From NCBI RefSeq assembly GCF_055900595.2, contig NZ_JBVWEU010000002.1: DNA of 64,000 nt, one strand, 5' to 3'. The notes beneath the pieces are model-generated. The model had not been told where the DNA came from. It saw only the letters and a program-made list of their open reading frames with translations, and searched no databases. Below, one piece after another: positions 1 to 53,992 of this stretch (position 1 is the stretch's first letter; each line of letters starts with the position of its first letter). Source of the DNA: a plasmid. The position numbers were made by a program, and so were the translations under genes.

Positions 1-978
1 GTGGATAAGTCGTCCGGTGAACTGGTGACACTGACACCAAACAATAACAACACCGTACAACCTGTGGCGCTGATGCGTCTGGGCGTTTTTGTACCGACCC
101 TTAAATCACTGAAGAACAGTAAAAAAAATACACTGTCACGTACTGATGCCACGGAAGAGCTGACACGTCTTTCCCTGGCCCGTGCTGAGGGATTCGATAA
201 GGTTGAGATCACCGGCCCCCGCCTGGATATGGATAACGATTTCAAGACCTGGGTGGGGATCATTCATTCCTTTGCCCGCCACAACGTGATTGGTGACAAA
301 GTTGAACTGCCTTTTGTTGAGTTTGCAAAACTGTGTGGTATACCTTCAAGCCAGTCATCCCGCAGGCTGCGTGAGCGCATCAGCCCTTCCCTGAAGCGCA
401 TTGCCGGTACCGTGATTTCGTTTTCCCGTACCGATGAGAAGCACACCCGGGAATATATCACCCATCTGGTACAGTCAGCTTACTACGATACTGAGCGGGA
501 TATTGTGCAGTTACAGGCCGATCCCCGCCTGTTTGAACTGTACCAGTTTGACAGAAAAGTCCTTCTCCAGCTTAAGGCGATTAATGCCCTGAAGCGACGG
601 GAGTCCGCCCAGGCACTCTACACCTTTATAGAGAGCCTGCCCCGGGATCCGGCACCGATATCGCTGGCGCGGCTGCGTGCACGCCTCAATCTGAAGTCTC
701 CTGTATTTTCCCAGAACCAGACGGTCAGACGGGCAATGGAGCAGTTGCGCGAGATTGGATATCTTGATTACACGGAGATCCAGCGGGGGCGGACAAAATT
801 CTTCTGTATTCACTACCGGCGTCCCCGGTTAAAAGCGCCGAATGATGAGAGTAAGGAAAATCCGTTGCAACCTTCACCTGCGGAAAAAGTCAGTCCGGAG
901 ATGGCGGAGAAGCTTGCCCTGCTTGAGAAACTGGGCATCACGCTGGATGACCTGGAAAAACTCTTCAAATCCCGCTGA
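1..978 (+). CDS. repA: RepFIB-type replication initiator RepA (iteron-binding Rep protein)
   Basis: 325-aa ORF starting at GTG at the window edge (5' control region is off-window); translation resembles the RepFIB initiator as I recall it; followed immediately by iteron-like repeats. Confidence 0.75.
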
Positions 979-1010
979 ACATAAACTGTAGTCAGTGAAG
1001 AGCGCTCCTT

Positions 1011-1245
1011 TACTGACTACAGCTTATATTAACCGGTGCAGTGAGTGGTCTGCTCACTGCAGTTTATATTCTGTTTCCTGCAGTGCTGTCTGTAGCTGAG
1101 CTGCCATCTGCCTGTCCCTTACGTAAGTGATCCCGTAACCTGATGCTGAGGCATTGCTCCCTTCATAAAACATGACTTACTCACTACAGCTTATATACAT
1201 GCTCCAGCTTATGTTATGTCTGTTCTGCTGACCACAGCTTATATA
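1011..1245. repeat. Iteron-like direct repeats downstream of repA (about 4-5 copies of a CACTACAGCTTATAT-type unit; a further copy near 1628-1640) plus an 11-bp inverted repeat at about 986-1023
   Basis: Repeated ACAGCTTATAT cores read directly at about 1014, 1054, 1180, 1232 and 1628; arrangement typical of Rep-protein binding sites. Confidence 0.6.
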
Positions 1246-1262
1246 AGGAAGCGCGTATGCCG

Positions 1263-2003
1263 TCACCTCAGGGGAGGCAGTGTACGCAGGATCTCCGCAG
1301 CATCCCGCCCGTCACCGGTGAAAGGCACTGCCAGCGTGGCAGCCATATCCAGTGCAAACACTCTGGTATAAACCTCCATCGAACGTGGATCCCTGTGACC
1401 AGCCAGTGCCTGGATGACTTTCCGGGGCTGGCGGTGATAGAGCATGTGCATGATATAGCTGTGCCGGAAGGTGTGTGGTGTGACCGGAATCGAAAAGTGT
1501 ACTCCGTCAGCTTCGGCCCGTCTGACAGCCTGCTTCAGCCAGTTGCGCATGGTTTCGTCGGTCACGGCCCATAATGGTTCACGACGACGGGGCCGGGTGG
1601 TGATCATCCAGCTTTCCATCTGCCTGACATAGCTTATATCTGTCAGCGGAACCAGGCGCACTTCATCTTTTGGCGGGCGTCCGCGTCGCGCACGCACTTT
1701 TTCGGACAGGATCCGCACAAACGGTCTTACTCCATTCAGGTCAAATGATTCCGGCGTCAGCATCCGGGCTTCGCCAATACGCATTCCGGTATTCCAGAGG
1801 GTGGCGAACAGCATATGGTGACGCTGATCCGGCATATAGAAAAGAAGGGCACTCACTTCCGGGGCCAGCAGGTAGGCCGGTGTGGCCCCCGTGGAAGTGG
1901 CCATTCTTCTCAGGGAGAGCGCTGTTGCAAAATCCACCCCCGGCGCAATGGGTAACAGGGAGACGCGTTCTGGTGAATTCTGCAGGGGAATGACATTGTT
2001 CAT
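1263..2003 (-). CDS. int: Tyrosine site-specific recombinase (phage-integrase family), the RepFIB-associated int/resolvase
   Basis: 246-aa ORF; C-terminal segments [13 protein letters not shown] and [11 protein letters not shown] fit the R-H-R-Y catalytic region of tyrosine recombinases; position next to RepFIB. Confidence 0.75.
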
Positions 2004-2686: not shown

Positions 2687-3589
2687 CTAACATAAGCATT
2701 TACCAACCTTACAGGGAACAGACCATAGTAGTTTATATTTCCATTCAGGTCTGAATGCACCGATAGAATATATCATCTTTTTATTATTATCCTGACAATA
2801 CCTTCGTGCTTTATCTATATTCAGCCACATAAGGACACTTCCCGGACTTAGTTTCATGCAATTCTCATCATTCAGAACTGCACCATTTGGAACGTCATAA
2901 TAAACATTACATGAGCTTTCAGATTTCAGTACTATATCAATAGCACACGGTTTATTATCCCAGAATAGCACATGGCCAAACATAAGTTCTCGTAAGTGAG
3001 AAATAAACATTAACAGATTATCATATTCGTAGCAAGGTAGGGTACCTCCAAACCGGGAATGAAAAAGTGATATATAAGAGCTGGATATTTCTTTATCGGA
3101 TAACTGGCTTATACACTTAATCTCTCCGCCATTCCTGATAAATCTCTGGATTTCATTTCGGCGAGTTTTTTCAAATTTAGGTGAAAAAGATTCCTTTATA
3201 ATACAATTTTGTTTTTTTCTGGCTATTTTCCATGTTGCATTGATAATATTTTGTTTATTTATAATTGATAATTTATTAGTTTTATCCGGAAAAAAACATC
3301 TTGCATGTGGGGAAAAAGGAATTAATACCTCATCAGATGAAAGAGGATAAGACCTTCTTGCCATTATCCCAATTTGTTTTCCATTGCACAGAAAATATGA
3401 GCCTTTGATATCACCATCTTTTTCATAGTGAAAAAAATCAAACTTCCAGTCATGATGTATCATAAAGTATGAAACAACATCCGGATGCATGTTTACACTA
3501 CCACCGTATTTTTCAAAAGTTTTTTTGTACGTTTCGAATGTAGATGGTTTCCAGGCCGTAATAATGCGCTTTATATTTTTAATTGACAA
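2687..3589 (-). CDS. mig-14: Mig-14-like protein
   Basis: 300-aa ORF in a visibly AT-rich islet directly downstream of hlyF on the same strand; call rests mainly on the conserved hlyF/ompT neighbourhood of ColV-type plasmids. Confidence 0.5.
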   Translation of the reverse strand: MSIKNIKRIITAWKPSTFETYKKTFEKYGGSVNMHPDVVSYFMIHHDWKFDFFHYEKDGDIKGSYFLCNGKQIGIMARRSYPLSSDEVLIPFSPHARCFFPDKTNKLSIINKQNIINATWKIARKKQNCIIKESFSPKFEKTRRNEIQRFIRNGGEIKCISQLSDKEISSSYISLFHSRFGGTLPCYEYDNLLMFISHLRELMFGHVLFWDNKPCAIDIVLKSESSCNVYYDVPNGAVLNDENCMKLSPGSVLMWLNIDKARRYCQDNNKKMIYSIGAFRPEWKYKLLWSVPCKVGKCLC

Positions 3590-3657
3590 AGTTATATCCT
3601 CGGCGTTTTTATATATTATGAGTGCAACACCAACAATAATTCTGATTATGATAAATA

Positions 3658-4773
3658 TTATTTAAAATCAACTTCCATTTGTTGTTGAATTGAAAGGTGT
3701 TTTGTCGTTTCTATACAGTATTTAATATAATCAGTAAACTTTGGCGGTTTAGGCATTCCGATACTCAGTAGCTTGTCGTTACTGAAACAAACATTGAGCA
3801 TACTGAACGCTCCATATAAACGAATGGCTTTTAACATAAGGCGTTCGTTACAGGGACCAAAAATATTTTTAAAGTCATGACGGCTCATTGCCAGTATGTC
3901 ATAACTGACTTTAGTATATCTGTCTCCAACAGGAACACAGTTCAAAGCACGGGCTACAGCTTCGTCAATAGCAGAGAACGTCACACTACTTTCTTTACCT
4001 GCTGATATATGAACAATCTCACCATTAATTAACGAGCTTTCAAGCAACATTAGCAATGCATCAGCACAATAATCTACAGGGATAACATCTATTTTATCAT
4101 CCAGAGAGCACATAAATTTTTGCAACATTAACCCCATTCTGAATACCCAGAAAATACTGGTTGAAGGTAAGCACCCTAAACGACTGTGGCCAACAATAAT
4201 TGATGGTCGGGCAACCAACAAAGGTAAATCAGGACACTGCTTACGCATCAGATATTCTATTGTTGCTTTTGAATGCGTATACTCCACTAAATGTTCACCT
4301 GTTTCTGATGAAGCAGACTCTTCCTTAACTAGCGACCCCGTATGAGGTGTACAAGACATAGCAGTACCAACATGAAGGAAGCGTTTCAGTCCTGCCACTT
4401 TTGCCATTCTTCTTGCAAAAGCAAGTGTACCTGTAACATTCACATTCCATATAAAAGGATTATTACCAAAAGAAGCTATAGCCGCACAGTTTATAACATG
4501 AGTGACTTCATCAAGACGAGGATCCATGAGAAAGGCTTCCGGATTATTTAGATCCCCAGGCAAGATGTTATCATTAGTTAATGCATGCAACCTTTCCTCA
4601 CAAACATTAAATTTACGCATATTTTCTTTAATTCTTTCCAGTCCCGCTTGTGGAGTAGGTGCTCGTACTAAAAGTAGCAAATTTATATTATTACAGTTAT
4701 CCAGCAGCTTATCCAGGACCGCGCCACCAAGAAATCCTGTTGCACCTGTAAGTAATAACAATTTCATATCCAA
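3658..4773 (-). CDS. hlyF: HlyF-like NAD(P)-binding epimerase/dehydratase-fold protein
   Basis: 371-aa ORF with N-terminal Rossmann motif LLLTGATGFLGGAVL; AT-rich; adjacent to plasmid ompT and mig-14-like. Confidence 0.7.
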   Translation of the reverse strand: MDMKLLLLTGATGFLGGAVLDKLLDNCNNINLLLLVRAPTPQAGLERIKENMRKFNVCEERLHALTNDNILPGDLNNPEAFLMDPRLDEVTHVINCAAIASFGNNPFIWNVNVTGTLAFARRMAKVAGLKRFLHVGTAMSCTPHTGSLVKEESASSETGEHLVEYTHSKATIEYLMRKQCPDLPLLVARPSIIVGHSRLGCLPSTSIFWVFRMGLMLQKFMCSLDDKIDVIPVDYCADALLMLLESSLINGEIVHISAGKESSVTFSAIDEAVARALNCVPVGDRYTKVSYDILAMSRHDFKNIFGPCNERLMLKAIRLYGAFSMLNVCFSNDKLLSIGMPKPPKFTDYIKYCIETTKHLSIQQQMEVDFK

Positions 4774-5199
4774 CCTCTTTTGTTTTCATGTAATCATTAT
4801 AAAAATAAATTATCTTACATAAACAATTATTAAACAAAATCAAGAGAGATTAAATGTAAAAACAATGTTTGTTTTTATATGGCAGGATCCTTCAGGTTAT
4901 TGCGTATGTTTTTATTGGATGTTCTGCTTATTATTGATGAGTAATAGCATTATAATAAAGTTCATATTGTTAACATCGCTTATCAATTATTTTTATGTCG
5001 ATAACACTGTGTCGTTATGCATGAAGAGTGGCAGGGCAGCATCGTTAAAAATACAAGAGTTAACAGAAACACTTTTATCGTGGCGCACATATATCCTCCA
5101 CATATTATAAAAAATAAAAAGACCACCATCAGAAGTGCTGGCCTTTTGTTTATCATATTTAAAGTGTCATGAAAAAATTAAAAACAGGCATGTTTCAGG

Positions 5200-6159
5200 T
5201 TAAAAATAATACTTCAGACCAGCTGTGGTCATAAAGTTATAGCTTTCAATGCCTGCACCATTTTTGGTGTGATCAGATATATTCAAATTTCTGGAGTACA
5301 GAGAAGTATCACCTTTCTTATTAGTAATACGGTTCCATGTTCCTTCGACATAAACTTTAGCTGCAGGTGTAATATAATAACCAGCATGTAGTGAGACAGA
5401 GTAATAGTTCTGATTATTTACATCGCTACGATAGGTGATCCTTTTCTCAGGGTTGTAATGCTCATCATTATCCGATGCCTTCACCCATCCGCTATATTTG
5501 AAACTCCCACCGAACTCAAAGCTATCATACAGATAATTACCGGTTAACCCTATATAGGGCATTTTAAAGTGTTGTTTGTAGCCTATAGCTCTTTCACCAT
5601 CTGGAAATGATCCCGTTTCATCCCGGAAGCCTCCCTCACTACTATAGATATAAGAGCCTCCTTTTGCTGTAAAGCTATAACGATTTTCCTGGTAACCAGC
5701 CATAAGACCTAACTGATAGTCTGGTTGATTCAGGAGCCATCCCTTAATATTCAGGTCGAATTCATTAGCAAAATTTAGACGGGTATTCGGATGTTTACTC
5801 TCATCAGTCCAGGTTCCGGGATTGCTCGTATCCAGCCAGTCCCTGTCCACCATATTGCCTCCACGACCAGCTAATGTTGTCCACCCTGAGGCACCGACAG
5901 ATACTCTGGGTAACAGATCCCAGTTAAATGCCCCCTTGACAATTGGCGCATTACTGTATTTCCAGTCCAGCTGGCTGGCTTTGCGCCCTTTTTCTTCAGG
6001 CAGATAAACCCGTTCTTTGGCCTTGCCACTTAAAGTGCCAAAATCAATCTCCGTACTGATTTTCTCCGGTGTAAAAGAAAGCCCAGTATCAGAAGCCAGT
6101 GCAGCAAACGCTACAGGAGCTGAGAGTGCAGTAGCAAGAATCTTTAAGTACATAGACAA
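5200..6159 (-). CDS. ompT: Omptin-family outer-membrane protease (plasmid OmpT)
   Basis: 319-aa ORF with signal peptide; long stretches closely similar to E. coli OmpT as I recall it (e.g. WTDESKHPNTRLNFANEFDLNIKGWLL, DNDEHYNPEKRITYRS). Confidence 0.85.
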   Translation of the reverse strand: MSMYLKILATALSAPVAFAALASDTGLSFTPEKISTEIDFGTLSGKAKERVYLPEEKGRKASQLDWKYSNAPIVKGAFNWDLLPRVSVGASGWTTLAGRGGNMVDRDWLDTSNPGTWTDESKHPNTRLNFANEFDLNIKGWLLNQPDYQLGLMAGYQENRYSFTAKGGSYIYSSEGGFRDETGSFPDGERAIGYKQHFKMPYIGLTGNYLYDSFEFGGSFKYSGWVKASDNDEHYNPEKRITYRSDVNNQNYYSVSLHAGYYITPAAKVYVEGTWNRITNKKGDTSLYSRNLNISDHTKNGAGIESYNFMTTAGLKYYF

Positions 6160-8460: not shown

Positions 8461-9120
8461 AACAATTATTATCAACAACTTGGAAGGAGTAAGACTACCC
8501 GTGGCGATTCAATATTAGATCATTGATGGAGATATAAATGGCTCACTTTTTATCGGTTGTTGACGATACGTTTATCAAGTATACATGAAAATTTCTTCAT
8601 ACCAGCTATATGAGACGTTAAGACTAAAAATCTTACTCCCAAAATGACTATGTTGTTGCAGTTTGGTTTATTGACTCTTGTCTATAGTTCACCGAATGCC
8701 AAGATGAGGGAGCGAGGAACTTTACTGTCTACGCCTCTCTTCCTGGTTACAAAGACAAGCGTAAAACTCACCATCCATTAGAACTAAAGGCACTTTCCTG
8801 AGCAGAGTTTTCATCTGCAAGATAAAAGCTATTTTACAGCCGTAAAGTCCAGTGAAACGAAAGAGAGGTTAGTGAATTAATTACTTGATGTATTAAAGTA
8901 TAATGGGCGTAGATAACACCTTAATACGAAATCTTGTCAGACTTTCCCGGTAATTAGTAATACTGTTGAAACAAAGCGAGAGGGGGTTAGCCCAATTTAC
9001 GCAAATAAATAATAATCTTGATTATGATTAATTCCAAATAAGTATATTTTTCCAGTAGATGCTGGGCATTAACTAAGAAAACCCAGAATACCACTTTCAT
9101 TGTTATGGAAAACATGGACA

Positions 9121-10308
9121 ATGTTAATGAAATATATTTCTCACCGCGCCATCATTTGTACCTTGACACTGTTGATCATTATTATCACCGTTTTGTTCAC
9201 CTTTCTGAGAAGCTCTGATGTGCCAGAATATATTACTGCCCCGGTGCGCAAAGGCGATATAGAAAATTCTGTTCTGGCGACAGGCCGTATTGATGCAATT
9301 GAACGGGTAAACGTAGGGGCACAGGTATCAGGGCAATTAAAATCACTGAAAGTGAAACAGGGCGACCATGTGACTAAAGGGCAGTTGATTGCCGAAATTG
9401 ACGACCTACCTCAGTGTAACGATTTGCGTAATGCCGAAGCTGCACTCAACGAAGTGAAAGCAGAACTTCAATCCAAGCAGGCGCTCCTGAAACAGGCTGA
9501 ACTGCGTTTTAAACGCCAGCTCCGGATGCTAAGAGAAAATGCCAGCTCACACGAAGATTTTGAGTCTGCGGAGGCAATGCTTGCGACCACTCGCGCTGAA
9601 TTACTGTCTCTGAATGCCAAACTGGTCCAGGCACAGATAGAAGTAGATAAGAAAAAGCTTGCCCTTGAATATACGCGAGTCGTAGCGCCAATGGATGGAA
9701 TTGTTATTGCCATTGTCACTCAGCAAGGGCAAACCGTTAACTCAAACCAGAGTGCCCCAACAATTATTAAACTCGCTCGTCTGGATGTCATGACCATTAA
9801 AGCACAGATCTCCGAGGCTGATATAACCCGTATTTCTGTGGGGCAAAAAGCCCGCTTCTCTATCTTCTCCGAACCGGACAAGCACTACAGCGCAACACTG
9901 CGTGCCGTTGAACTGGCACCAGAATCGGTAATGAAAGATGACTCTCTCGCCAGCAACACTTCAGCATCAGGCTCCGGAACTTCAAATGCGTCCGTTTATT
10001 ACAATGCTCTATTCGATGTGCCTAACCCAGAAAATCGACTTCGTATTGCCATGACTGCTCAGGTTACCCTGATTACTGATGAAGCCCAAAATACACTGCT
10101 GGTACCCATTCAGGCAGTGCACAGAAATGAGGGGAAGAAGCAACAGGTCCTGGTGCTGGCAGCAGATGGCAGGCTGGAACCCCGGAATGTGAAAACTGGT
10201 ATCACGAACAGCGTGGATATTCAGATCCTCGAAGGTTTAAATGTCGGAGAAAATGTCGTGCTGTCGCTGCCGGATAAGAAAGAGCCCGAAGAAAGGATTA
10301 TGCTGTGA
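9121..10308 (+). CDS. etsA: Periplasmic adaptor (membrane fusion protein, MacA-like) of the ets efflux system
   Basis: ORF track starts at TTG 9100; first ATG at 9121 precedes an N-terminal TM helix; coiled-coil/barrel-sandwich adaptor-like sequence; overlaps the next gene by 4 nt. Confidence 0.75.
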   Translation: MLMKYISHRAIICTLTLLIIIITVLFTFLRSSDVPEYITAPVRKGDIENSVLATGRIDAIERVNVGAQVSGQLKSLKVKQGDHVTKGQLIAEIDDLPQCNDLRNAEAALNEVKAELQSKQALLKQAELRFKRQLRMLRENASSHEDFESAEAMLATTRAELLSLNAKLVQAQIEVDKKKLALEYTRVVAPMDGIVIAIVTQQGQTVNSNQSAPTIIKLARLDVMTIKAQISEADITRISVGQKARFSIFSEPDKHYSATLRAVELAPESVMKDDSLASNTSASGSGTSNASVYYNALFDVPNPENRLRIAMTAQVTLITDEAQNTLLVPIQAVHRNEGKKQQVLVLAADGRLEPRNVKTGITNSVDIQILEGLNVGENVVLSLPDKKEPEERIML

Positions 10309-12245
10309 AAAAACTTATTGAGTTAAAAGGGGTTAGCCGAACTTATGGCAACGGAGATCAAACGCGGACCGTCCTGAAAAATGTCGATTTGACAATCGTT
10401 GCTGGAGAAATGGTGGCAATCATTGGAGCCTCTGGCTCAGGCAAATCAACCTTAATGAACATAATGGGTTGCCTTGACGTACCCAATAGAGGTGATTACT
10501 ACATCGACGGACAAAATGCCGCCTGTCTTTCACCCGATGAGCTGGCTAGAGTGCGCCGGGAACACATTGGCTTTATATTCCAGCGCTACCATTTGATACC
10601 TGATCTTAGCGCACTTGGTAACGTGGAGATCCCGGCCATTTACGCCAACAGCGAACGCGACAGCCGTCGGCAACGTGCAACGGCGTTGCTGGGCAGACTG
10701 GGACTGGAAGGACGTGAGCATCATAAACCTTGCGAACTTTCAGGCGGTCAGCAGCAACGCGTCAGTATTGCCCGAGCACTGATCAACGGTGGAAAGATAA
10801 TTTTGGCGGATGAGCCAACTGGTGCTCTGGATTCGCAATCCGGGCAAGAAGTGTTAGCCATTCTGAATGAACTTAATCGACGTGGTCATACTGTAGTAAT
10901 GGTGACCCACGATATGAAGGTCGCCCGGCACGCAAAGCGAATCATTGAGCTGTGTGATGGCGAAATCATCGCTGATAGTGGAGGTTGCGTATCTGCGACG
11001 GAAACACTACCAAAAACCAACAGAATCCGGCAAAGCTATTGGAAAACACTGCTCGATCGAACGCGTGAATCGATGCAAATGGCGCTAAAAGCGATGAAGA
11101 CGCATCGCTTACGCACCACGCTTACCATGATCGGGATTGTTTTTGGTATCGCCTCCGTTGTCACTGTTGTGGCATTGGGTGAAGGAGCCAGGCAAGAAAC
11201 ACTGGAAGAGATTAAAAGTCTGGGGACAAACGTGGTCAGCATTTATCCCGGGCAGGATTTGTTCGATGACAGCATTGAGAGTATTAGAACATTGGTACCT
11301 GCTGACGCAAATGCACTGGCGAAGCAAGGGTTTATCGATAGCGTCAGCCCGGAAGTTAGCGCTTCAGACAACATTCGTTTTCTGGGTAAATCTGCGATAG
11401 CGTCCATTAACGGCGTTGGGCGGGAACATTTCCGGGTAAAAGGTATTGAGTTGTTGCAAGGGACTACTTTTAGAGACGATCGCAACGCTCTACAGGAAGT
11501 TATTATCGATGAGAATACTCGTAAGGCCATTTTCGACAACACAGGGTTACAGGCTCTGGGGCAAATAGTCTTTCTTGGTTCTGTACCAGCACGAGTGGTT
11601 GGCATCGCTAAAAGTAACAACCGTAGTGATGCATCAAATCGCATTACTGTGTGGATGCCTTACAGCACGGTGATGTACCGTATTGTGGGTAAACCAGTTC
11701 TGACCGGTATTAGCGTCAGGCTAAAAGACAATGTGGATAACGAGGCTGCAATCAGCGCTATCTCCCAACTATTAACCCGGCGTCACGGCATAAAAGACTT
11801 CCAGCTTTATAACTTTGAACAAATAAGAAAGTCTATCGAACACACCTCAATGACCTTCAGTATTTTAATTCTTATGGTCGCATGTATCTCACTAATGATC
11901 GGCAGTATCGGGGTGATGAACATCATGTTGATTTCTGTAACGGAACGAACTCATGAAATTGGCGTACGAATGGCGGTTGGCGCGAGACGCAGCGACATTA
12001 TGCAACAGTTTATTATTGAGGCCGTATTGGTTTGCCTGATTGGTGGCGCACTCGGTATTGCACTGTCGTATATCACAGGTGCGCTCTTTAACGCTCTGGC
12101 GGACGGGATATTCGCAGCTATATATTCGTGGCAGGCTGCTGTTGCTGCATTTCTTTGCTCAACCTTAATCGGCATAATCTTCGGGTATCTCCCAGCCCGC
12201 AAGGCAGCAAGGATGGACCCGGTTATTTCACTGGCCAGCGAATAA
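10305..12245 (+). CDS. etsB: MacB-like ABC transporter (N-terminal ATPase fused to C-terminal permease)
   Basis: 646 aa; Walker A GASGSGKST, signature LSGGQQQRVSIARAL, Walker B IILADEPTGALD, then FtsX-like permease region. Confidence 0.8.
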   Translation: MKKLIELKGVSRTYGNGDQTRTVLKNVDLTIVAGEMVAIIGASGSGKSTLMNIMGCLDVPNRGDYYIDGQNAACLSPDELARVRREHIGFIFQRYHLIPDLSALGNVEIPAIYANSERDSRRQRATALLGRLGLEGREHHKPCELSGGQQQRVSIARALINGGKIILADEPTGALDSQSGQEVLAILNELNRRGHTVVMVTHDMKVARHAKRIIELCDGEIIADSGGCVSATETLPKTNRIRQSYWKTLLDRTRESMQMALKAMKTHRLRTTLTMIGIVFGIASVVTVVALGEGARQETLEEIKSLGTNVVSIYPGQDLFDDSIESIRTLVPADANALAKQGFIDSVSPEVSASDNIRFLGKSAIASINGVGREHFRVKGIELLQGTTFRDDRNALQEVIIDENTRKAIFDNTGLQALGQIVFLGSVPARVVGIAKSNNRSDASNRITVWMPYSTVMYRIVGKPVLTGISVRLKDNVDNEAAISAISQLLTRRHGIKDFQLYNFEQIRKSIEHTSMTFSILILMVACISLMIGSIGVMNIMLISVTERTHEIGVRMAVGARRSDIMQQFIIEAVLVCLIGGALGIALSYITGALFNALADGIFAAIYSWQAAVAAFLCSTLIGIIFGYLPARKAARMDPVISLASE

Positions 12246-12248
12246 TAT

Positions 12249-22702: not shown

Positions 22703-22960
22703 TCAGCCCTGTTTAAAGCCCGGCTTGCCGTTTTTGGCTCGCCATTCCTTCACTTCTTTTACGATACCTTCAGGACTGTCCTCACGGTCATCCCTTGGAT
22801 AATAAATAAGATCAGAACCATCAGGGTGTTCAGCTAATCGACGAAATTCATCCACTAATTTATCATCATCAGCCTCAGTTTCACCTTCAGCCCGGCAGAT
22901 TTTTCTGACGAACTCCAGAAACTCCGCCTCGGTATAGTCAGAAATCGTTTTCTTTTCCAT
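22703..22960 (-). CDS. Nuclease-colicin-type immunity protein (Im family)
   Basis: 85 aa; [12 protein letters not shown] ... [12 protein letters not shown] ... GKPGFKQG closely parallels the DNase-colicin immunity proteins as I recall them; starts one nt after the toxin stop. Confidence 0.75.
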
Positions 22961-23296
22961 TTACTTATTTCCTCTGTGAATTTCAATATGATGCTTGGGT
23001 GTCACTACCCTGAGATTATCGATATCATAAACAGCGCCACCATCCGTAACGCGCTTGATATGGTGCAGTTCGAAACGTTCTCGTTCACCTACACGCTCTG
23101 ATTCAGGAACAAACGAAGATTTACCTTTTGTAACCAGAACCTTATTCTGATTTTTGAACTGCTTCAGTAACTCCGGATCTTTCCCCACTTCCATCCACAA
23201 CGCCTTACGGAACCACGGCAGCCTGGAGGCTGCAAATCGGGGTGTGGCAGAATATGAGCTTTCAGAGTAACCATCCAGAATGAGTTCCCATGTCAC
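22961..23296 (-). CDS. HNH DNase toxin domain (colicin E9/pyocin-type C-terminal nuclease), probably a truncated remnant
   Basis: 111 aa ending ...RERFELHHIKRVTDGGAVYDIDNLRVVTPKHHIEIHRGNK (HNH motif); no translocation or receptor domains upstream. Confidence 0.6.
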   Translation of the reverse strand: MTWELILDGYSESSYSATPRFAASRLPWFRKALWMEVGKDPELLKQFKNQNKVLVTKGKSSFVPESERVGERERFELHHIKRVTDGGAVYDIDNLRVVTPKHHIEIHRGNK

Positions 23297-26306: not shown

Positions 26307-26579
26307 GGGGTAAGGGGTATTTGTTAAAAATCAGCACTATCCCTGCCAAATAGGATGATTAATATCACAATATATCGACAATTTTTTTAATATTAAACAA
26401 ATAAACATTTGAAAAAAGTTGTTTATGAATGTCATAGATTGATGTAAATCACATTTTTCATAACAACATTTAGACACCTCAAAAATATTCGCTCCTGTAA
26501 AACAACTTTTTTTTCTGTTGTGGGTCACCTTTATATTGAATACTCGTCACCAGTAAACAATATATACTGGAGATTTGTC

Positions 26580-27248
26580 ATGACGATATCCATTTTTCAG
26601 GCTCAACCCTTTGAATTACCCTTTGATCCGTGCACAACGGCACTGATCATGATAGACATGCAACGTGATTTTGTCGAAGCAGGAGGGTTTGGAGAAGCAT
26701 TGGGTAATGATGTTTCACTGGTTCGCACGGCTATCGCACCATGTAAAGAAGTTCTGGCAGCCGCACGTCAAAAAGGAATTATGGTTATTCATACCCGTGA
26801 AGGCCATCGTGAAGACTTAAGCGACTGCCCATCAGCCAAACTGACGCGCGGCGGAAAAACCTTTATTGGTGAACCAGGACCGATGGGACGCATTCTGGTC
26901 AGGGGTGAAGCAGGTCATGACATCATTCCTGAACTGTATCCGGTGACAGGCGAACCTGTGATTGATAAACCCGGTAAAGGCGCTTTTTATCAAACCGACT
27001 TACATCTGATTTTGCAAAAGCGTGGTATCAAGACACTTATTGTTTGTGGCGTGACTACCGAAGTTTGCGTAACCACCACCGTGCGTGAAGCAAATGACCG
27101 TGGCTATGAATGCATCATACCGGAAGATTGCGTTGGCTCCTATTTCCCGGAATTCCAGAAATACGCCCTTGAGATGATCAAAGCACAAGGTGCCATTTTC
27201 GGTTGGGTTACTGATTCCAAAGCCATTATTGCAGGTCTGGAAGGCTAA
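26580..27248 (+). CDS. Isochorismatase-family cysteine hydrolase (amidase-type)
   Basis: Start taken at ATG 26580 (GGAG about 7 nt upstream); MIDMQRDF (Asp), DKPGKGAF (Lys) and LIVCGVTTEVCV (Cys) match the family catalytic triad pattern. Confidence 0.7.
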   Translation: MTISIFQAQPFELPFDPCTTALIMIDMQRDFVEAGGFGEALGNDVSLVRTAIAPCKEVLAAARQKGIMVIHTREGHREDLSDCPSAKLTRGGKTFIGEPGPMGRILVRGEAGHDIIPELYPVTGEPVIDKPGKGAFYQTDLHLILQKRGIKTLIVCGVTTEVCVTTTVREANDRGYECIIPEDCVGSYFPEFQKYALEMIKAQGAIFGWVTDSKAIIAGLEG

Positions 27249-27253
27249 CGCCG

Positions 27254-28114
27254 ATGGTACAGGTTACGCTTTGTGCATCGTCGTTGGGATATCTTTTCCC
27301 GCAGAATGAAACGCAAGATTTACGTCTACATAGCGCTTTTAAACATGCGGTAAATCTGTATTCAGACGCGGGAACATTCATCACTCTGTTGTGTGCGCAA
27401 ACGTATCTGAATCTCCCTGATGCTGCCAGAGTCTGGCTACCTGAATGTTGGGACTGGCGAAGAGAGATTGCCCATTCAGATCCCATTCAATTAACCCCAG
27501 GCTTACTGCGGACACCTCGATTTTGTGTGGCGCTCGATAACGCAACGCTCTGGCAGTCGCCATTTGTGGGGGGAATGCTGACTCTTGAGGCATTGCCTTT
27601 GGTTTTCCAGCACTACCCCACGATAGCATCGCAACGGCTTTTATTTTGTCTGGAGCATAACGTTCAAAGCACATTGCACCTGCCGGATAGTCTCACGCAC
27701 CAGGGATTAGATATTATGGAACATCCAGATGCGCTGGAACGCCAGGTACCCCAACTGATCGGCTTTGGTAAAGGCTTAACGCCCGATGGAGATGACTATT
27801 TGCTGGGCTATCTGGCAGCCCTCTGGTTATGGCAACTCCCTGCACCACTTGCCAATCATCAATACAGGTTGCAGAAGGCAATTGAACAACATGCACACAA
27901 CACCACGGATATAAGTCGTCATTATCTGCAACGTGCGCTTCAGGGACATTTTTCAGAACCGATTTGCCGGTTACTCGCACAACTGGTTGGGAGCGCATCG
28001 GCAATGACAATCGCATCCTGTACAGAACAGATCATGCAATTTGGCGCAACATCAGGAGTAAATTGCCTTGCAGGAATGCTGCATGGATTTCGAACCCTGA
28101 ACACCATGAATTGA
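27254..28114 (+). CDS. DUF2877-family protein (YlbF/YahE-like)
   Basis: 286 aa; same position relative to the FdrA-like gene as in cluster 2; motif GLTPDGDDYLLGYL shared with the 43104 paralog (GLTPSSDDYLVGL). Confidence 0.55.
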   Translation: MVQVTLCASSLGYLFPQNETQDLRLHSAFKHAVNLYSDAGTFITLLCAQTYLNLPDAARVWLPECWDWRREIAHSDPIQLTPGLLRTPRFCVALDNATLWQSPFVGGMLTLEALPLVFQHYPTIASQRLLFCLEHNVQSTLHLPDSLTHQGLDIMEHPDALERQVPQLIGFGKGLTPDGDDYLLGYLAALWLWQLPAPLANHQYRLQKAIEQHAHNTTDISRHYLQRALQGHFSEPICRLLAQLVGSASAMTIASCTEQIMQFGATSGVNCLAGMLHGFRTLNTMN

Positions 28115-28208
28115 TTTCAACCTTTTCTCCCGTAGCCCGTTTATGGGGCTACACGGGGATGCTTTGCCCGAATTTTGCTATCGGGCGGAATGGAACAGGC
28201 GTAACAGC

Positions 28209-29768
28209 ATGAAAGTTAAATATAAAGTTTTCAGTAATCTTTATCAGGACTCAGTTTCTCTGATGCAGATTTCCGCGCAAATCAGCAAGTTGCCCGGTAT
28301 TCAACAGGCCTCGGTCGTCATGGGAACACCCAATAATCTCGAGCAATTGCGCGATGCGGGTCTGGGTAACGAAATCAACGCCAGTCCCAATGATTTAGTG
28401 ATTGCAGTCATGGGTGAAGAAGATATTTGCAATGAAGCACTGCTACTGGCCCAGCAACGTCTGACCAGCAAACCCGATGATGAAACGGATTGTGGCATTA
28501 AATCACCGGAAAAGGTCAGCCTGGAAATGGCACTGGAAGCTGAACCCGAAGCCAACCTGGCACTCATTTCTGTACCGGGAGACTACGCCGCCGCCGAAGC
28601 AATTAAAGCGTTAAACCTCGGAATGAACGTGATGATGTTCAGCGATAACGTCAGTATCGGGCAGGAAAAATACATCAAAACGCTTGCCCGAGAACGTCAG
28701 CGCATCGTAATGGGACCTGACTGTGGAACCGCCATTGTTAACGGCATTCCGTTAGGCTTCGCTAATGTGGTGAAACGCGGAGCAATTGGTGTTATTGGCG
28801 CGTCAGGCACCGGGCTACAGGAAGTGACTTGCCGAATCGACCAGCTCGGAGCGGGTATTTCTCAGGCGTTGGGAACAGGCGGACATGATCTCAGTGAAGA
28901 GATTGGTGGAATATCAATGCTCTTTGCTTTAGATGCGCTGGCACAAGACGATGAAACTCACGTGATTGTGCTTATTTCAAAACCGCCTTCACCGATCGTT
29001 GCCCGGACTATTCTGGAGCGCGCCGAGGCTTGTGGAAAACCCGTGGTGGTGAATTTCCTCGGGGCGAATCCGCATGATCTGGCACGTCCCAATATCACTG
29101 CCGCCACCACACTTGCCAGCGCCGCCGACATCGCTGTGGCGTTACTGAATGATCAGCCACTTCCGGCTGTCGAGAACGAGGTTTCCTGCGACGATCTCAC
29201 AATGTTACAAAACGCCTGCCAAAGTCTGCCAGTCCATCGCCAGGCGATACGCGGTGTTTTCGCCGGAGGAACCTTCTGTTACGAAGCTCAGCTTATCTGC
29301 CAACAAAAGGGATTCCATGCCGCCTCCAATACGCCAGTTGCGGGTAATCGTGCTCTGGCAAATATCTGGCAAAGTGAAGATCATACACTGATTGATATGG
29401 GGGACGATGATTTCACCCGTGGCAAACCGCATCCAATGATCGACCCGACTCTGCGCAATCAACGTCTGCTCAACGAACTCAACGACTCACATACTGCCGT
29501 TGTGTTATTCGACCTTGTACTTGGTTATGGCACCTCCGCTACGCCTGTCAGCGAATTACTGGACCAACTTTCACACATCGACATGAATAATGCACCGTTG
29601 CTGATTGCCCACGTTTGCGGAACAGAAGCTGATCCGCAAATACGCAGTCAGCAGATAAGCTCACTACAAAATGCAGGCGTCATCATTGCCAACAGCAATG
29701 CACAGGCGGCGCTATGGGCCAGCACCGTTGCACAGACTCAGTTGCAGAAAAAGGAGCTAAATGCATGA
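28209..29768 (+). CDS. FdrA-like protein (acyl-CoA-synthetase/succinyl-CoA-synthetase-alpha fold)
   Basis: Start at ATG 28209 (MKVKYKVFSNLYQDSVSLMQIS...); clear paralog of ORF 43912-45459 (e.g. MGPDCGTAIVNG, GASGTGLQE, TRGKPHPMIDPT). Confidence 0.7.
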   Translation: MKVKYKVFSNLYQDSVSLMQISAQISKLPGIQQASVVMGTPNNLEQLRDAGLGNEINASPNDLVIAVMGEEDICNEALLLAQQRLTSKPDDETDCGIKSPEKVSLEMALEAEPEANLALISVPGDYAAAEAIKALNLGMNVMMFSDNVSIGQEKYIKTLARERQRIVMGPDCGTAIVNGIPLGFANVVKRGAIGVIGASGTGLQEVTCRIDQLGAGISQALGTGGHDLSEEIGGISMLFALDALAQDDETHVIVLISKPPSPIVARTILERAEACGKPVVVNFLGANPHDLARPNITAATTLASAADIAVALLNDQPLPAVENEVSCDDLTMLQNACQSLPVHRQAIRGVFAGGTFCYEAQLICQQKGFHAASNTPVAGNRALANIWQSEDHTLIDMGDDDFTRGKPHPMIDPTLRNQRLLNELNDSHTAVVLFDLVLGYGTSATPVSELLDQLSHIDMNNAPLLIAHVCGTEADPQIRSQQISSLQNAGVIIANSNAQAALWASTVAQTQLQKKELNA

Positions 29769-31189
29769 ATACCTTATTTAATCAGCCTTTGAAGGTCGTG
29801 AACGCGGGGCTACACAGTTTTGCTGACAATATTCAACATGCAGGAGGGCATGCTATATCCCTCAACTGGCAGCCGCCAGCACAAGGTGATATTGACACCG
29901 GTTTGGTTCTGGCGTCATTACTACGCCATCCACTGGTAGAAAGTGCCAACCAAATCGCCATGACACGTTATCTCGAAGCACAGCCCGTGTTGGTGGATGT
30001 CATGCTCGCTAAAGAAGCCATCCCCGAAATGGCTGAACAAAAACGCATTTTACACTCTGGTCCACCGATTGCCTGGGAAGATATGTGTGGTCCGGTAAAA
30101 GGGGCGATTATTGGTGCCATGCTGTACGAAGGCTGGGCTACAAGCCAGAAAGACGCAGAAAACCAGATAAACGCAGGCGAAATCGACCTTGCTCCTTGTC
30201 ATCATTATCACGCGGTTGGACCAATGGCAGGCATTATCAGCCCGTCGATGCCATTATGGGTGGTGGAAAACAAAACCAACGGCCATCGTACTTTTAGCAA
30301 TTTCAATGAGGGTCTGGGTAAGGTTCTCCGTTTTGGTGCCAATAACGATGAAGTTCTCAATCGTCTGGCCTGGATGCGTGATGAACTGGCGCCGGCCATG
30401 AAAGCAGCAATCGCACAACACGGCGAGCTGGAACTCAAGCCATTAATGGCGCAGGCGCTGCATATGGGGGATGAAGTTCATAACCGCAATGCTGCCGCTA
30501 CCGGTTTGCTGATTAAGCGCCTGCTCCCGGCATTGCTGGCCTGCTCTCTTCCACAGGAACATATCCAGCGCGTCGTGGCATTTATCACAGGTAACGATCA
30601 CTTCTTCCTCAATTTGTCGATGGCTGCCTGTAAAGCAATGATGGATGCCGCCGCCAATGTACCGTTCAGTTCAATGGTTACGGTGATGGCGCGTAACGGG
30701 GTGAATTTTGGTATTCGGCTTTCCGGTACTGGCGATCGCTGGTTTCAGGCTCCTGCCAATGCAGTTGAAGGTCTGTTCTTCCCCGGATTTGGCGTTGACG
30801 ACGCCGCTTCTGACCTGGGTGATAGCGCAATTACTGAAACCGCAGGTGTGGGTGGCTTCGCGATGGCGTCATCTCCGGCGATTGTTAAATTTGTGGGAGG
30901 CACCCCTGCCGATGCCACCAATAACAGCCGTCGGATGCAGGCAATCACCCTCGGCGGTAACCCCGCATTTACACTTCCAGCCCTCAATTTTGCCCCCACC
31001 GCAGCAGGTATTGATGCGTGTAAAGTGACCGATCGTGGCATTTTACCGGTCATCAATACGGGTATCGCCCACAAACAAGCGGGAGTCGGACAAATTGGTG
31101 CCGGGATCACCACTGCACCGATGGCCTGTTTTGTCGCTGCTGTACGTGAACTGGCGGAGATCGTCGCAAAGGAGAACCATCATGGTTAA
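29765..31189 (+). CDS. DUF1116-family protein (YlbE/YahG-like)
   Basis: Start ATG overlaps the upstream stop; paralog of 45459-46877 (LFNQPL..VN.G, HSGPPI.WE.MCG, GDSAITET.GVGGFAMA). Confidence 0.65.
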   Translation: MNTLFNQPLKVVNAGLHSFADNIQHAGGHAISLNWQPPAQGDIDTGLVLASLLRHPLVESANQIAMTRYLEAQPVLVDVMLAKEAIPEMAEQKRILHSGPPIAWEDMCGPVKGAIIGAMLYEGWATSQKDAENQINAGEIDLAPCHHYHAVGPMAGIISPSMPLWVVENKTNGHRTFSNFNEGLGKVLRFGANNDEVLNRLAWMRDELAPAMKAAIAQHGELELKPLMAQALHMGDEVHNRNAAATGLLIKRLLPALLACSLPQEHIQRVVAFITGNDHFFLNLSMAACKAMMDAAANVPFSSMVTVMARNGVNFGIRLSGTGDRWFQAPANAVEGLFFPGFGVDDAASDLGDSAITETAGVGGFAMASSPAIVKFVGGTPADATNNSRRMQAITLGGNPAFTLPALNFAPTAAGIDACKVTDRGILPVINTGIAHKQAGVGQIGAGITTAPMACFVAAVRELAEIVAKENHHG

Positions 31190-32138
31190 GCCACTGGCTG
31201 TCGTCGCGGTTGGCGGCAATGCGCTCATTCAGGACGATAAACGCAATAGTATTCCCGATCAATATGTTGCAGTAATGGAAAGCGTGCAGCATATCGTTGA
31301 TATGGTTGAAGCCGGATGGGAGCTGGTGCTAACCCATGGTAATGGCCCGCAGGTAGGCTTTATTCTGCGCCGCTCTGAACTTGCCAGTAACGAAGTTTCT
31401 CCGGTTCCTCTGGATTACGCCGTGGGTGATACCCAAGGCGCCATTGGATACATGTTCCAGAAAGCGCTGCATAACGAATTGGCTCGCCGTGGCATAAACA
31501 AACCGGTAATTGCCCTGGTGACACAAACGCGAGTCAGCCCATATGACGATGCTTTCGCCAGCCCCAGTAAACCGATTGGCGCGTTTCTTGATGAAGAAAC
31601 AGCACAACAACGCCAACAACAACTCGGCTGGACGCTGATGGAGGACGCCGGGCGTGGTTGGCGGCGTACAGTTCCCTCTCCTGCGCCACTGGAAATTATT
31701 GAGCACCACACCATCGCTCACCTTGTGCGCCAGGGATATCTGGTTATAGCCTGCGGCGGCGGCGGTATACCTGTGGTGCGAGACGGGCAACAACTGAAAG
31801 GTGTGGAAGCCGTGATCGATAAAGACCTGGCCTCCGCATTGCTCGCCAGTCAGTTAGGCGCTGATCTGCTGGTGATCCCCACCGGTGTAGAAAAAGTGGC
31901 GATTCACTTTGGTACACCACAACAACAATGGCTCGACGCTATCAGCGTCTACGAAGCTCAAACGCTGTTGCAGGAAGGTCAGTTTGGTGTCGGCAGTATG
32001 CAACCCAAAGTGGAAGCCATTATTGATTTCATCAATGCCAGCCAGCAACAAGGCAAACAGGCCAGCGGACTGATTACTTCACCGCAAACCATAAAAGCAG
32101 CCCTGGCACATCAGAGCGGAACATGGATAACCCTTTAA
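31182..32138 (+). CDS. Carbamate kinase
   Basis: Start at ATG 31182 (overlaps upstream gene by 8 nt); AVGGNAL ... THGNGPQVG ... ACGGGGIPVV motifs. Confidence 0.8.
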   Translation: MVKPLAVVAVGGNALIQDDKRNSIPDQYVAVMESVQHIVDMVEAGWELVLTHGNGPQVGFILRRSELASNEVSPVPLDYAVGDTQGAIGYMFQKALHNELARRGINKPVIALVTQTRVSPYDDAFASPSKPIGAFLDEETAQQRQQQLGWTLMEDAGRGWRRTVPSPAPLEIIEHHTIAHLVRQGYLVIACGGGGIPVVRDGQQLKGVEAVIDKDLASALLASQLGADLLVIPTGVEKVAIHFGTPQQQWLDAISVYEAQTLLQEGQFGVGSMQPKVEAIIDFINASQQQGKQASGLITSPQTIKAALAHQSGTWITL

Positions 32139-32154
32139 TTCTCTGGAGAACACA

Positions 32155-32544
32155 ATGACTACAACACTTTTAGCCGTTAACGGAACGCTGATGCGCGGTC
32201 TGGAACTCAACCCAAATATGCAAAAAGCTGGCGGTATTTTTGTCCGTGAAGACCGAACTGACGCCCATTACCGGTTATGGAGTATTAATGATCGTCATCC
32301 CGGAATGATCCGCGTGAATGAAGGAGGAGCACACGTAGACGTAGAAATCTGGCAACTGCCTCTGGCCAGTTTTGCCGAACTGTTAATGAACGAACCCGAA
32401 GGCCTGACCATTGGAAAAATCAAACTTGCCGATGGTAGCGAAGTACTGGGCGTACTGGCAGAAAGCTGGCTGACTGAAGGCCAGAAGGAGATTACAGCAC
32501 TGGGGGGCTGGCGCAAATACACCGGGAATTTTCACACGATGTAA
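32155..32544 (+). CDS. Small gamma-glutamyl-cyclotransferase-like (AIG2/allophanate-hydrolase C-domain-like) protein
   Basis: 129 aa; weak by-eye resemblance only. Confidence 0.4.
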   Translation: MTTTLLAVNGTLMRGLELNPNMQKAGGIFVREDRTDAHYRLWSINDRHPGMIRVNEGGAHVDVEIWQLPLASFAELLMNEPEGLTIGKIKLADGSEVLGVLAESWLTEGQKEITALGGWRKYTGNFHTM

Positions 32545-32569
32545 CGCGCATTTATAAAGGAAACATATT

Positions 32570-33790
32570 ATGCGTAAAGAAGATAATATGAATACGGCAT
32601 CAGGATTGCGTATTACCATGATTTTGCTGGGTATTGCCGTCACACCTGTGCTGTTGTCATCCTCAAGCCTCGGCAATCAACTTTCCAGTGGTAGTTTAAT
32701 TAGCGTCGTACTATTAGGCGGCGTCATTCTGACCTTACTTTCAGCCATCACCATTAGTGTGGGAGAAAAAGCCCGCCTGCCAACATACGGTATTGTGAAA
32801 TATTCATTTGGCGAAAAAGGGGCCATCGCCATTAATATTTTGATGGCTATAAGTCTGTTCGGCTGGATTGCCGTTACCGCTAATATGTTTGGTCATTCGG
32901 TGCATGACTTACTGGCGCAGAATGGGATTGAAGCGCCACTGGCACTGTTAGTGGCAGCTGGTTGTGTCATTTTTGTCGCCTCTACGGCCTTTGGTTTTTC
33001 CATTCTGGGCAAAGTTGCCCAGGTCGCCGTGCCGGTTATCGCACTGGTGCTGTGTTATATACTCTATGTGGCAACCCATACCGAAGTATCAGCGCCAGCA
33101 GCGATAGCGGAGATGAGTACAGGTGTCGCCGTTTCCACCGTTGTTGGCACTATTATTGTGCTGGTTGCTACACTTCCCGACTTCGGTAGTTTTGTACATA
33201 ACCGAAAACATGCTCTGATTGCCGCAGGTATGACGTTTCTGGTTGCCTACCCTCTGCTATACTGGGCGGGTGCAACGCCGAGTGCCATTAGCGGCCAGGG
33301 CTCTTTACTGAATGCTATGGCAGTATTCGGTGCGGTTATGCCTGCAGCACTGTTGCTGATATTCGCCTGCGTCACCGGTAATGCGGGCAATATGTTCCAG
33401 GGGACGTTGGTAGTTTCCACACTGCTTAGCCGCTTTCCCAAATGGCAGATTACCGTTGCGCTGGGTATCCTTTCCGCCATCGTAGGCAGTATGGATATTA
33501 TGGCGTGGTTTATTCCGTTTCTGCTGTTCCTGGGTATCGCGACTCCCCCAGTTGCCGGAATTTATATCGCTGACTTTTTCCTTTATCGCCGTAATGGCTA
33601 TCAAGAGTCGGTGTTAACTCAGGAGTCACAGGTTAAAGTACTGACATTCGCTGCATGGATCACAGGCACAGCGGTTGGCTTTATGACCGTAAAAGGCTTA
33701 TTCACCCTGACGACGATCCCTTCAGTTGACTCCATTCTGGTGGCATGTATCGCGTATGCGATTCTCAGTCGGGCAAGTCAACACCGCTAA
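32570..33790 (+). CDS. NCS1-family permease (cytosine/purine/hydantoin-type)
   Basis: 406 aa, about 12 hydrophobic segments; resemblance to CodB-type permeases. Confidence 0.6.
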   Translation: MRKEDNMNTASGLRITMILLGIAVTPVLLSSSSLGNQLSSGSLISVVLLGGVILTLLSAITISVGEKARLPTYGIVKYSFGEKGAIAINILMAISLFGWIAVTANMFGHSVHDLLAQNGIEAPLALLVAAGCVIFVASTAFGFSILGKVAQVAVPVIALVLCYILYVATHTEVSAPAAIAEMSTGVAVSTVVGTIIVLVATLPDFGSFVHNRKHALIAAGMTFLVAYPLLYWAGATPSAISGQGSLLNAMAVFGAVMPAALLLIFACVTGNAGNMFQGTLVVSTLLSRFPKWQITVALGILSAIVGSMDIMAWFIPFLLFLGIATPPVAGIYIADFFLYRRNGYQESVLTQESQVKVLTFAAWITGTAVGFMTVKGLFTLTTIPSVDSILVACIAYAILSRASQHR

Positions 33791-33867
33791 TTCCTGGGTA
33801 TACTCAGGCAATGATTACGGCTGAATCTGGAGAGATTCAGCCACTTTACCACTGACCAGGGAGCCTT

Positions 33868-39070: not shown

Positions 39071-39349
39071 TTACTGTTCGCGAATTATCACTCTGGATTC
39101 CTTCCTGGTGACATAAGTACAGTTATCAGGTACATCTTCCATAATAAAAGACATTGCCCCGATTTTAACATTACTTCCGATTTTCACATTTAACCCAATA
39201 ATACATGTATGGGCACCAATATCGACATTATCACCAATAACAATATAGTTTTCCCTACTGTCAGAAACCTTTTCACCAATGGTTGTATTCTGCCGTATAA
39301 TGACATTCTCACCGATATCAACATTACCATGAATGACGATTCCTGCATG
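39071..39349 (-). pseudogene. C-terminal half of a hexapeptide-repeat (LbH) acetyltransferase gene, separated from its N-terminal half (54358-54678) by the IS1-bounded unit
   Basis: Reads HAGIVIHGNVDIGENVIIRQNTTIGEKV...IGDNVDIGAHTCII... directly from the IS1 end; the 9 bp TCCTGCATG abut the IS1 end. Confidence 0.6.
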
Positions 39350-39631
39350 GGTAATGACTCCAACTTATTGATAGTGTTTTATGTTCAGATAATGCCCGAT
39401 GACTTTGTCATGCAGCTCCACCGATTTTGAGAACGACAGCGACTTCCGTCCCAGCCGTGCCAGGTGCTGCCTCAGGTTCAGGTTATGCCGCTCAATTCGC
39501 TGCGTATATCGCTTGCTGATTACGTGCAGCTTTCCCTTCAGGCGGGATTCATACAGCGGCCAGCCATCCGTCATCCATATCACCACGTCAAAGGGTGACA
39601 GCAGGCTCATAAGACGCCCCAGCGTCGCCAC
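39350..39631 (-). mobile_element. IS1 fragment (right-end about 280 bp, inverted), truncated internally
   Basis: Starts GGTAATGACTCCAACTTATTGATAGTG; encodes the InsB C-terminus on the minus strand. Confidence 0.8.
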
Positions 39632-43018: not shown

Positions 43019-43103
43019 CAACAGGAGCACGATTATCGCTATATTATCACGGCAATCTTTTCGGGCACTAACCGCAGACTGCGCGTTTCTCACTTTTCGG
43101 GGA

Positions 43104-48540: not shown

Positions 48541-48566
48541 ATAGCCTGCAAACGGAAGATAATTCT

Positions 48567-51685: not shown

Positions 51686-53992
<2,307 letters not shown>

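Follow-up and report, generated by a model that had tools for sequence, protein, structure and literature searches.

Two known replication modules, RepFIB and IncFII, at the two ends of a 64-kb window from an IncF plasmid

Does a stretch of plasmid DNA of 64,000 nucleotides (hereafter the window) with replication genes at both of its ends carry two independent replicons, and are these replicons of known kinds? Our analysis indicates that the window is very probably the RepFIB-to-tra half of an Escherichia coli ColV-type IncF virulence plasmid, with two independent and already characterised replication modules. RepFIB is located at one end of the window and IncFII at the other, and both modules are well known, with nothing new in either. 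Among the large plasmids of E. coli, FIB:FII multi-replicon plasmids are the most common type, and experiments have dissected both of their modules. These are textbook modules that co-occur in thousands of sequenced plasmids, and beyond correct annotation the finding matters little. Our analysis established which genes and RNAs are present, where the iterons lie, how close the homologies are and that the window has no third replicon; the control mechanisms invoked below come from published work on P307, pO157, F, R1 and R100. Both replicons are probably active in this plasmid.

Comparison with sequenced plasmids revealed that the window is nearly collinear with pMTY1886_IncF, starting at base 1 of that record, and consequently the annotated GTG of repA was evidently the point at which the source record was made linear. 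This plasmid was the best match (99.8%, with differences in insertion sequences, IS), and the E. coli complete-genome set contained no perfect full-length match. Positions 1-2100 were 100% identical to five E. coli plasmids, p135-3 and pMTY1886_IncF among them, and 99.7% identical to the RepFIB-int module of classical ColV/ColBM plasmids (NC_007675, NC_011747), the virulence plasmids of avian and extraintestinal pathogenic E. coli that include pAPEC-O2-ColV and pS88. Features common to ColV/ColBM plasmids follow the RepFIB-int module: a mig-14-like gene, an SDR oxidoreductase gene, an omptin gene, an ets-like efflux operon and an eit-like iron-uptake operon. However, the best matches of the window differ from the ColV/ColBM plasmids in having a DNase-colicin remnant and two fdrA/carbamate-kinase metabolic clusters. 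The likeness to ColV is set by shared genes and module identity.

The repA gene of the RepFIB module (1-978, + strand) encodes an iteron-binding initiator of 325 aa when read from its annotated GTG, and the product matches Pfam Rep3_N (E=5.9e-11). The gene is 98.7% identical at nucleotide level to RepFIB repA of plasmid F, and positions 1-2246 share 97.9% identity with RepFIB and int of that plasmid. The RepFIB repA proposed in an earlier reading, made from the sequence only, was thus borne out. The same sequence-only reading had placed a RepFIB replicon at 1-2003, a label that is correct for a unit that is not complete, as the start of the window cuts off the origin half of the replicon together with the true start of its gene. 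The FIB assignment also survived typing in silico with primers whose sequences we take to be those of Villa et al. 2010: the reverse primer matched exactly at 583-603, and the forward primer matched exactly in the 100%-identical p135-3 (L001), at 2921-2944 of that record, 57-80 nt upstream of repA and outside the window. The RepFIB modules of P307, F and pO157 were reportedly described by Saul et al. 1989 and by Gibbs, Spiers and Bergquist 1993, and more recently by Lloyd et al. 2025 (PMC11983097). The window shares with them the same repA, the E-J iterons in two triplets and the adjacent int, and its 100%-identical relatives share the upstream DnaA box, the B/C/D/D' iterons and a CTG start.

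Translation of RepFIB RepA begins at a CTG that follows a ribosome-binding site, and not at the annotated GTG (PMC11983097, Lloyd et al. 2025). In p135-3 this CTG is located 42 nt 5' of the GTG, in frame with the open reading frame of the window, where it reads GGAGGCTTTCTG and the upstream frame is open; the repA of the window thus lacks the first 14 codons of the gene. The CTG, the ribosome-binding site, the promoter, the DnaA box and the origin iterons all lie outside the window and are visible only in 100%-identical relatives, and the state of these upstream parts in the present plasmid is taken from relatives with 100% identity over 1-2300. A record whose linear form begins at the annotated GTG of RepFIB repA has its replicon cut in two, with the origin and the CTG landing at the opposite end of the record, and window-based scans of such records see the control half only.

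Six iterons of 17 bp with the consensus CTGACYACAGYTTATRT lie directly 3' of the repA stop and are arranged in two triplets, 979-1069 and 1180-1244. The first triplet is composed of the inverted iteron E (979-995, - strand; CTGACTACAGTTTATGT, with 0 mismatches to the degenerate consensus) and of iterons F (1013-1029; CTGACTACAGCTTATAT) and G (1053-1069; CTCACTGCAGTTTATAT), and the second of iterons H (1180-1196; CTCACTACAGCTTATAT), I (1198-1214; ATGCTCCAGCTTATGT) and J (1228-1244; CTGACCACAGCTTATAT), all five on the + strand. Iteron I is the most degenerate and was recovered by a repeat search (71% to the reference) and by a scan with an 11-mer. The letters E to J were assigned by order and two-triplet layout and not from a published coordinate table; an iteron K is also named in PMC11983097. 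Iterons E and F form a dyad with a 15-bp stem right after the repA stop, the hairpin at 3986-4022 of p135-3 (L001) corresponding to 986-1022 of the window.

The iterons upstream of repA (BCDD') belong to the origin, and the downstream E-J block is a control element that alone cures a RepFIB plasmid, whereas the upstream block does not (PMC11983097). The array at 979-1244 is the copy-control set E-J and not the origin; the iterons of the sequence-only reading stand, with their status refined in this way. The origin elements are found in p135-3 200-380 bp upstream of repA. They consist of a DnaA box, TTATCCACA (L001 2625), with five GATC sites within 50 bp, and of three inverted iterons, B, C and D, at an exact spacing of 21 bp with a fourth 44 bp further (L001 2741-2845). 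According to the published mechanism, RepA monomers would bind origin iterons B, C, D and D' beside the DnaA box and the GATC cluster just upstream of repA, and iterons E-J would titrate RepA and 'handcuff' the origin iterons, thereby setting copy number and FIB incompatibility. The FIB(K)-type plasmids found in Klebsiella and E. coli keep the positions of the array, have CAGTCAAT as iteron core as against CAGCTTAT, and carry a repA with about 62% nucleotide identity. The iteron core changes along with repA, as would be expected of a protein and the sites that it binds.

The IncFII module at the other end of the window is complete (55925-57699, - strand) and contains repA2/copB, the CopA RNA gene, tap, repA1 and oriR. 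The repA2-repA1-oriR set proposed at 55900-57699 was recovered there in full, with CopA and tap in addition, and all five parts scored above curated thresholds. The repA2/copB gene (57451-57699, - strand) encodes a transcriptional repressor of divergent allele (Pfam RepB-RCR_reg, PF10723, E=4.4e-34; NF010256, 138 bits against a cut-off of 87). The gene of the CopA antisense RNA (57223-57313, + strand) matched Rfam RF00042 over its full length with 97.9 bits, the gathering score being 60, and its predicted fold has two stem-loops. The tap leader peptide (57131-57205, - strand; Pfam RepA1_leader, E=2.7e-13) is followed by the initiator gene repA1 (56281-57138, - strand), which encodes 285 aa and scored 574 bits with TIGR03474 (incFII_RepA; cut-off 446.9) and 606 bits with NF010313 (cut-off 478). 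As read from the sequence, the tap stop (57131-57133) overlaps the repA1 start (GTG at 57138), an arrangement of translational coupling. The oriR segment (55925-56110, - strand, limits approximate) lies some 175 nt past the stop codon of repA1 and contains a DnaA box, TTATCCACA (56097-56105), followed by an AT-rich region.

The order of these parts is that of the IncFII replicon of R100 (NR1) and R1, and most of them are close to R100 in sequence. RepA1 shares 268 of 285 residues with its R100 counterpart (94%) and Tap 23 of 24 (96%), oriR is essentially identical (3 mismatches in about 240 aligned columns that span the DnaA box and the AT-rich region), and loop II of CopA is identical. In contrast, CopB is two residues shorter than in R100 and has diverged to 58% identity (49/84 residues against R100, 49/85 against F), and a few substitutions are found between stem-loops I and II of CopA. 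The low identity of CopB accounts for the overall identity of 90% to R100. Among the best 5000 plasmid records only 6 had at least 99% identity over the 2-kb IncFII module, so that this combination of alleles is uncommon. By the mechanism described for R1 and R100, CopA would pair with the repA1 leader and block translation of tap, to which translation of repA1 would be coupled; CopB would repress the repA1 promoter, and RepA1 would act in cis on oriR. Judging from the divergence of CopB, repression of the promoter may differ in specificity here.

Each of these assignments has a competitor. The repeats at 979-1244 could in principle reflect chance similarity within an AT-rich spacer, and the 11-mer alone, with 2 mismatches allowed, is indeed not rare (25 matches in the window against 14.4 expected). 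However, when up to 3 mismatches were allowed, the degenerate 17-mer CTSACYACAGYTTATRT gave five matches clustered within 979-1244 and one elsewhere in 64 kb, about 1.1 being expected; the five copies in the array had at most 1 mismatch and the single outside match had three, and the total of 6 was reached in 0 of 100 shuffles. This non-random clustering confirmed the ACAGCTTATAT-type repeats that had been noticed from the letters. Furthermore, the same six downstream sites are kept in plasmid F, and in the relatives further copies of this word stand 21 bp apart ahead of repA. The shuffle test and this recurrence refute a chance origin, to which we attach a negligible probability, and leave a true iteron array. 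An iteron array may nevertheless belong to a silent remnant, as in plasmid F, where RepFIB is defective by a weak ribosome-binding site (PMC11983097); IncFII alone would then maintain the plasmid, and the position of the origin half outside the window means that the state of RepFIB is not directly readable. Against this, repA is intact, as are all six control iterons, and every examined plasmid that is 100% identical over 1-2300 has GGAGG before the CTG, within a ribosome-binding region that is the exact 29-mer given for the functional P307 clade (PMC11983097), and not the AGAAGG of F. Apart from this site, the module differs from that of F by 2.1% over 2.2 kb and has the same structure. We therefore consider a silent RepFIB quite unlikely and favour a working one. 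For the second replicon the choice lies between IncFII proper and RepFIC, the F-plasmid type of the FII family. The PLSDB MOB-suite typing of the near-identical pMTY1886_IncF returns 'IncFIC', and plasmids of avian E. coli commonly combine IncFIB with IncFIC(FII). These labels are however unreliable, given that R100 itself is called 'IncFIA' and that the equally identical p135-3 has no IncFIC label, and direct comparison pointed elsewhere. Both FII typing primers matched exactly and delimited a 261-bp product (57136-57396) that shares 96.2% identity with R100 and 93.5% with the RepFIC remnant of F. The module as a whole is 90% identical to R100 over 2.3 kb and 81% identical to F over the shared 670 bp, and a three-way alignment of the product revealed that the loop II region of CopA, which sets incompatibility, is that of R100, with several differences from RepFIC of F. 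A RepFIC identity is thus very improbable, and sequence comparison supports IncFII rather than RepFIC for the second replicon, in agreement with the FII assignment made earlier.

The same typing raised the question of a third replicon, as the PLSDB MOB-suite labels of the nearest plasmids read 'IncFIA, IncFIB' or 'IncFIA, IncFIB, IncFIC'. Searches of the window with RepE of F by blastn and tblastn recovered no RepE homologue, and RepFIA was rejected as a candidate. Since R100 is also labelled 'IncFIA', the label reflects the FII replicon, and an 'IncFIA' call of PLSDB MOB-suite should not count as evidence for a third replicon.

The gene next to the RepFIB control iterons (int, 1263-2003, - strand) encodes a tyrosine recombinase of 246 aa, as had been proposed from the open reading frame, and matches Pfam Phage_integrase (E=1.3e-14). 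It is a paralogue of ResD, the resolvase of F, with 47% identity over 257 columns (E=4e-66). In an alignment to IntI4 the motifs R, HTFRH (HxxR), GH and VYT were in register, and about 50 residues precede the catalytic domain. The stretch formed by repA, the iterons and int was covered over at least 80% of its length in 3176 of the best 5000 plasmid records. An iteron-like word inside int (1624-1640) was considered as a possible seventh iteron. Plasmid F and a Citrobacter plasmid of the same iteron type also have it; because it is coding sequence, its conservation proves nothing. Recombinases of similar size that stand beside an iteron replicon are known in ResD with rfsF, in the RepFIA region of F, and in Rsd/RsdB of the Salmonella virulence plasmids. 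Unlike resD of F, int has no ccdAB upstream. An experimental study of the activity or the site of the RepFIB-linked recombinase was not found in the searchable literature.

The non-coding block immediately upstream of int (2004-2246, - strand, 243 bp) is a candidate for the int promoter and a recombination site. When compared with FIB(K)-type plasmids, it was the best conserved part of the whole RepFIB-int module, with 86.6% identity against 81% for the int coding sequence, 62.5% for repA, 55% for the iteron region and about 55% for the sequence beyond 2246. Within the block we found three direct repeats that contain GGATCC (2061-2174) and a promoter-like site (2151-2123). A search of 1995-2270 for a lox-like dyad (arms of 8-14 nt, spacer of 4-10 nt, at most 2 mismatches) found none, and when the block was compared with the 580 bp that precede ccdA in F, where rfsF presumably lies ahead of ccdAB-resD, nothing beyond trivial matches of 12-19 nt appeared. 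A spread sample of 40 plasmid records yielded 16 alignments that stopped at 2246-2248.

These patterns bear on whether the recombinase is a maintenance function of the replicon or the integrase of a mobile element that merely neighbours RepFIB. Most records annotate it as 'integrase', and the contrast between int with its upstream block (81-87%) and repA with the iterons (55-62%) in the comparison of FIB with FIB(K) indicates that the two halves of the module have separate histories. The frequent end of homology between plasmid lineages at 2246-2248 points the same way. In the ResD/rfsF systems of IncR and IncI1 plasmids, homology between plasmids is reported to end at rfsF, where modules are switched (PMC9412624, PMC8004404), and the break observed here resembles these ends. 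Against a mobile element, the closest characterised relative of the protein is the multimer resolvase of F, the protein is short, neither a pair of attachment-site-like repeats nor cargo bounded by such a pair was seen, and the place and orientation of int next to repA are constant in plasmids of E. coli, Klebsiella and Citrobacter. An integrase that is a mere neighbour therefore appears unlikely. By analogy with ResD, the recombinase would most likely resolve plasmid multimers at a site within the 243-bp block upstream of its own gene, and we infer from the same analogy that the block carries the site. A more specific proposal, in which the block would serve the ResD paralogue both in multimer resolution and as a recurrent junction that joins cargo regions to FIB replicons, is offered tentatively and is less likely than not; it would explain why the block is conserved above the coding parts and why homology stops at 2246-2248. 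The recombinase and its conserved block are the only part described here without a demonstrated function in the searchable literature.

The region between the two replicons was mapped by transferring to the window the RefSeq annotation of pMTY1886_IncF, whose DNA is 99.7-99.96% identical. About 13 IS elements or fragments were located there, in line with the IS density remarked upon in the sequence-only reading. These include IS3-family fragments (about 7.4-8.5 kb), IS1203 (14012-15322), an IS110-family gene (16052-17062), IS66 and IS3 fragments (about 24.1-25.7 kb), a frameshifted IS2-like element (about 35.8-37.3 kb), and IS1 pieces at 39344-39630, 51631-52039 and 53993-54367, the last two of which enclose IS100 (about 52.1-53.9 kb). 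Relative to pMTY1886_IncF, the window lacks one copy of IS1 and part of another, and carries IS1203 in inverted orientation. That reading had also linked the IS elements to rearrangement between the replicons, tolerated because a second replicon is present. The rearrangement is upheld by the variation in spacing and orientation; the role of the second replicon as the reason for tolerance does not follow from it. Among plasmids with replicons 99.7-100% identical to those of the window, the distance from FIB to FII ranged from 23.8 to 62.1 kb (with values of 55.8, 57.6, 59.2 and 62.1 kb among them), and the relative orientation of the replicons was reversed in two records, p135-3 and NZ_MW808987, which shows that the region between the replicons has been rearranged.

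Two hairpins with terminator-like scores lie downstream of the RepFIB replication gene. The first has a 15-bp stem that forms from iterons E and F (window 986-1022), directly 3' of the repA stop codon, and the second (1037-1061) uses iteron G as its right arm. According to PMC11983097, rep is followed by no obvious secondary structure. An additional iteron-like word, CTGACATAGCTTATATC, occurs at 1624-1640 inside the coding sequence of int, the adjoining tyrosine recombinase gene, where it is flanked by a short dyad (CTGACA...TGTCAG). Both F and a Citrobacter plasmid that shares this iteron type retain the word, which may have arisen by chance or may correspond to the 'iteron K' named in PMC11983097.

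The non-coding block upstream of int (2004-2246) was the most conserved part of the module when compared to FIB(K)-type plasmids, the Klebsiella and E. coli relatives with a diverged repA, with an identity of 86.6% that exceeded those of int (81%) and repA (62.5%). The block has three direct repeats that include GGATCC (2061-2174), and homology was sharply lost just past position 2246 in F and in Klebsiella, Citrobacter and E. coli relatives.

The RepFIB-int segment is adjoined by a ColV-type virulence cluster (2687-6159) with all genes on the minus strand, which encode a Mig-14-like protein (2687-3589), an SDR oxidoreductase (3658-4773), whose gene we take to be hlyF, and an omptin protease (5200-6159). 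The cluster is followed by an ets-like MacAB/TolC efflux operon (9100-13619). On the other side of the RepFIB origin, beyond the window, the closest plasmids (L001 1-1911, from p135-3, and a further relative, L009) carry directly upstream a chaperone-usher fimbrial operon, which may encode the PL fimbriae reported in bioRxiv 10.1101/2021.07.20.453171. Replicon labels of relatives must be read with care: the PLSDB typing gives R100 (NC_002134.1), the archetypal IncFII plasmid, the MOB-suite label 'IncFIA', and this label on relatives of the window is therefore not indicative of a RepFIA replicon.

IS1203 (14012-15322), within which the ALIL frameshift pseudoknot of the element was matched by Rfam at 14870-14986, is in the opposite orientation to that of the near-collinear plasmid pMTY1886_IncF, and the IS1 copy that lies beside it there is missing from the window. 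An Rfam match to STnc490 (13960-14033; 59.5 bits against a threshold of 56, with a length of 74 nt for a model of 124 positions) abuts the IS1203 boundary and is therefore probably IS-derived. Farther along, IS1 pieces at 51631-52039 and 53993-54367 lie on either side of IS100 (istB, 52105-52887; istA, 52884-53906), and the segment 51631-54367 looks like an IS1 into which IS100 inserted.

At ~22700-23200, the annotation of a 99.9%-identical relative shows a gene for bacteriocin immunity and an ORF of 78 aa labelled 'HNH endonuclease signature', which together look like the leftover of a DNase-type colicin with its immunity gene. Two divergent paralogous metabolic clusters (26520-34758 and 41096-49529) each contain DUF2877, fdrA, DUF1116 and carbamate kinase genes together with a LysR regulator; megablast within the window returned no match between them.

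Past oriR of the IncFII replicon, at a distance of ~600 bp and on the side opposite repA1, the minus strand encodes a RelE/ParE toxin together with a Phd/YefM antitoxin (54782-55317). A hok/sok-type toxin-antitoxin locus (57983-58278) adjoins repA2, the same placement as in F, with sok matched by Rfam at 58120-58278 on the minus strand. A strong Rfam match (178 bits) to the antisense RNA AS-pc02 was found at 59834-60019.
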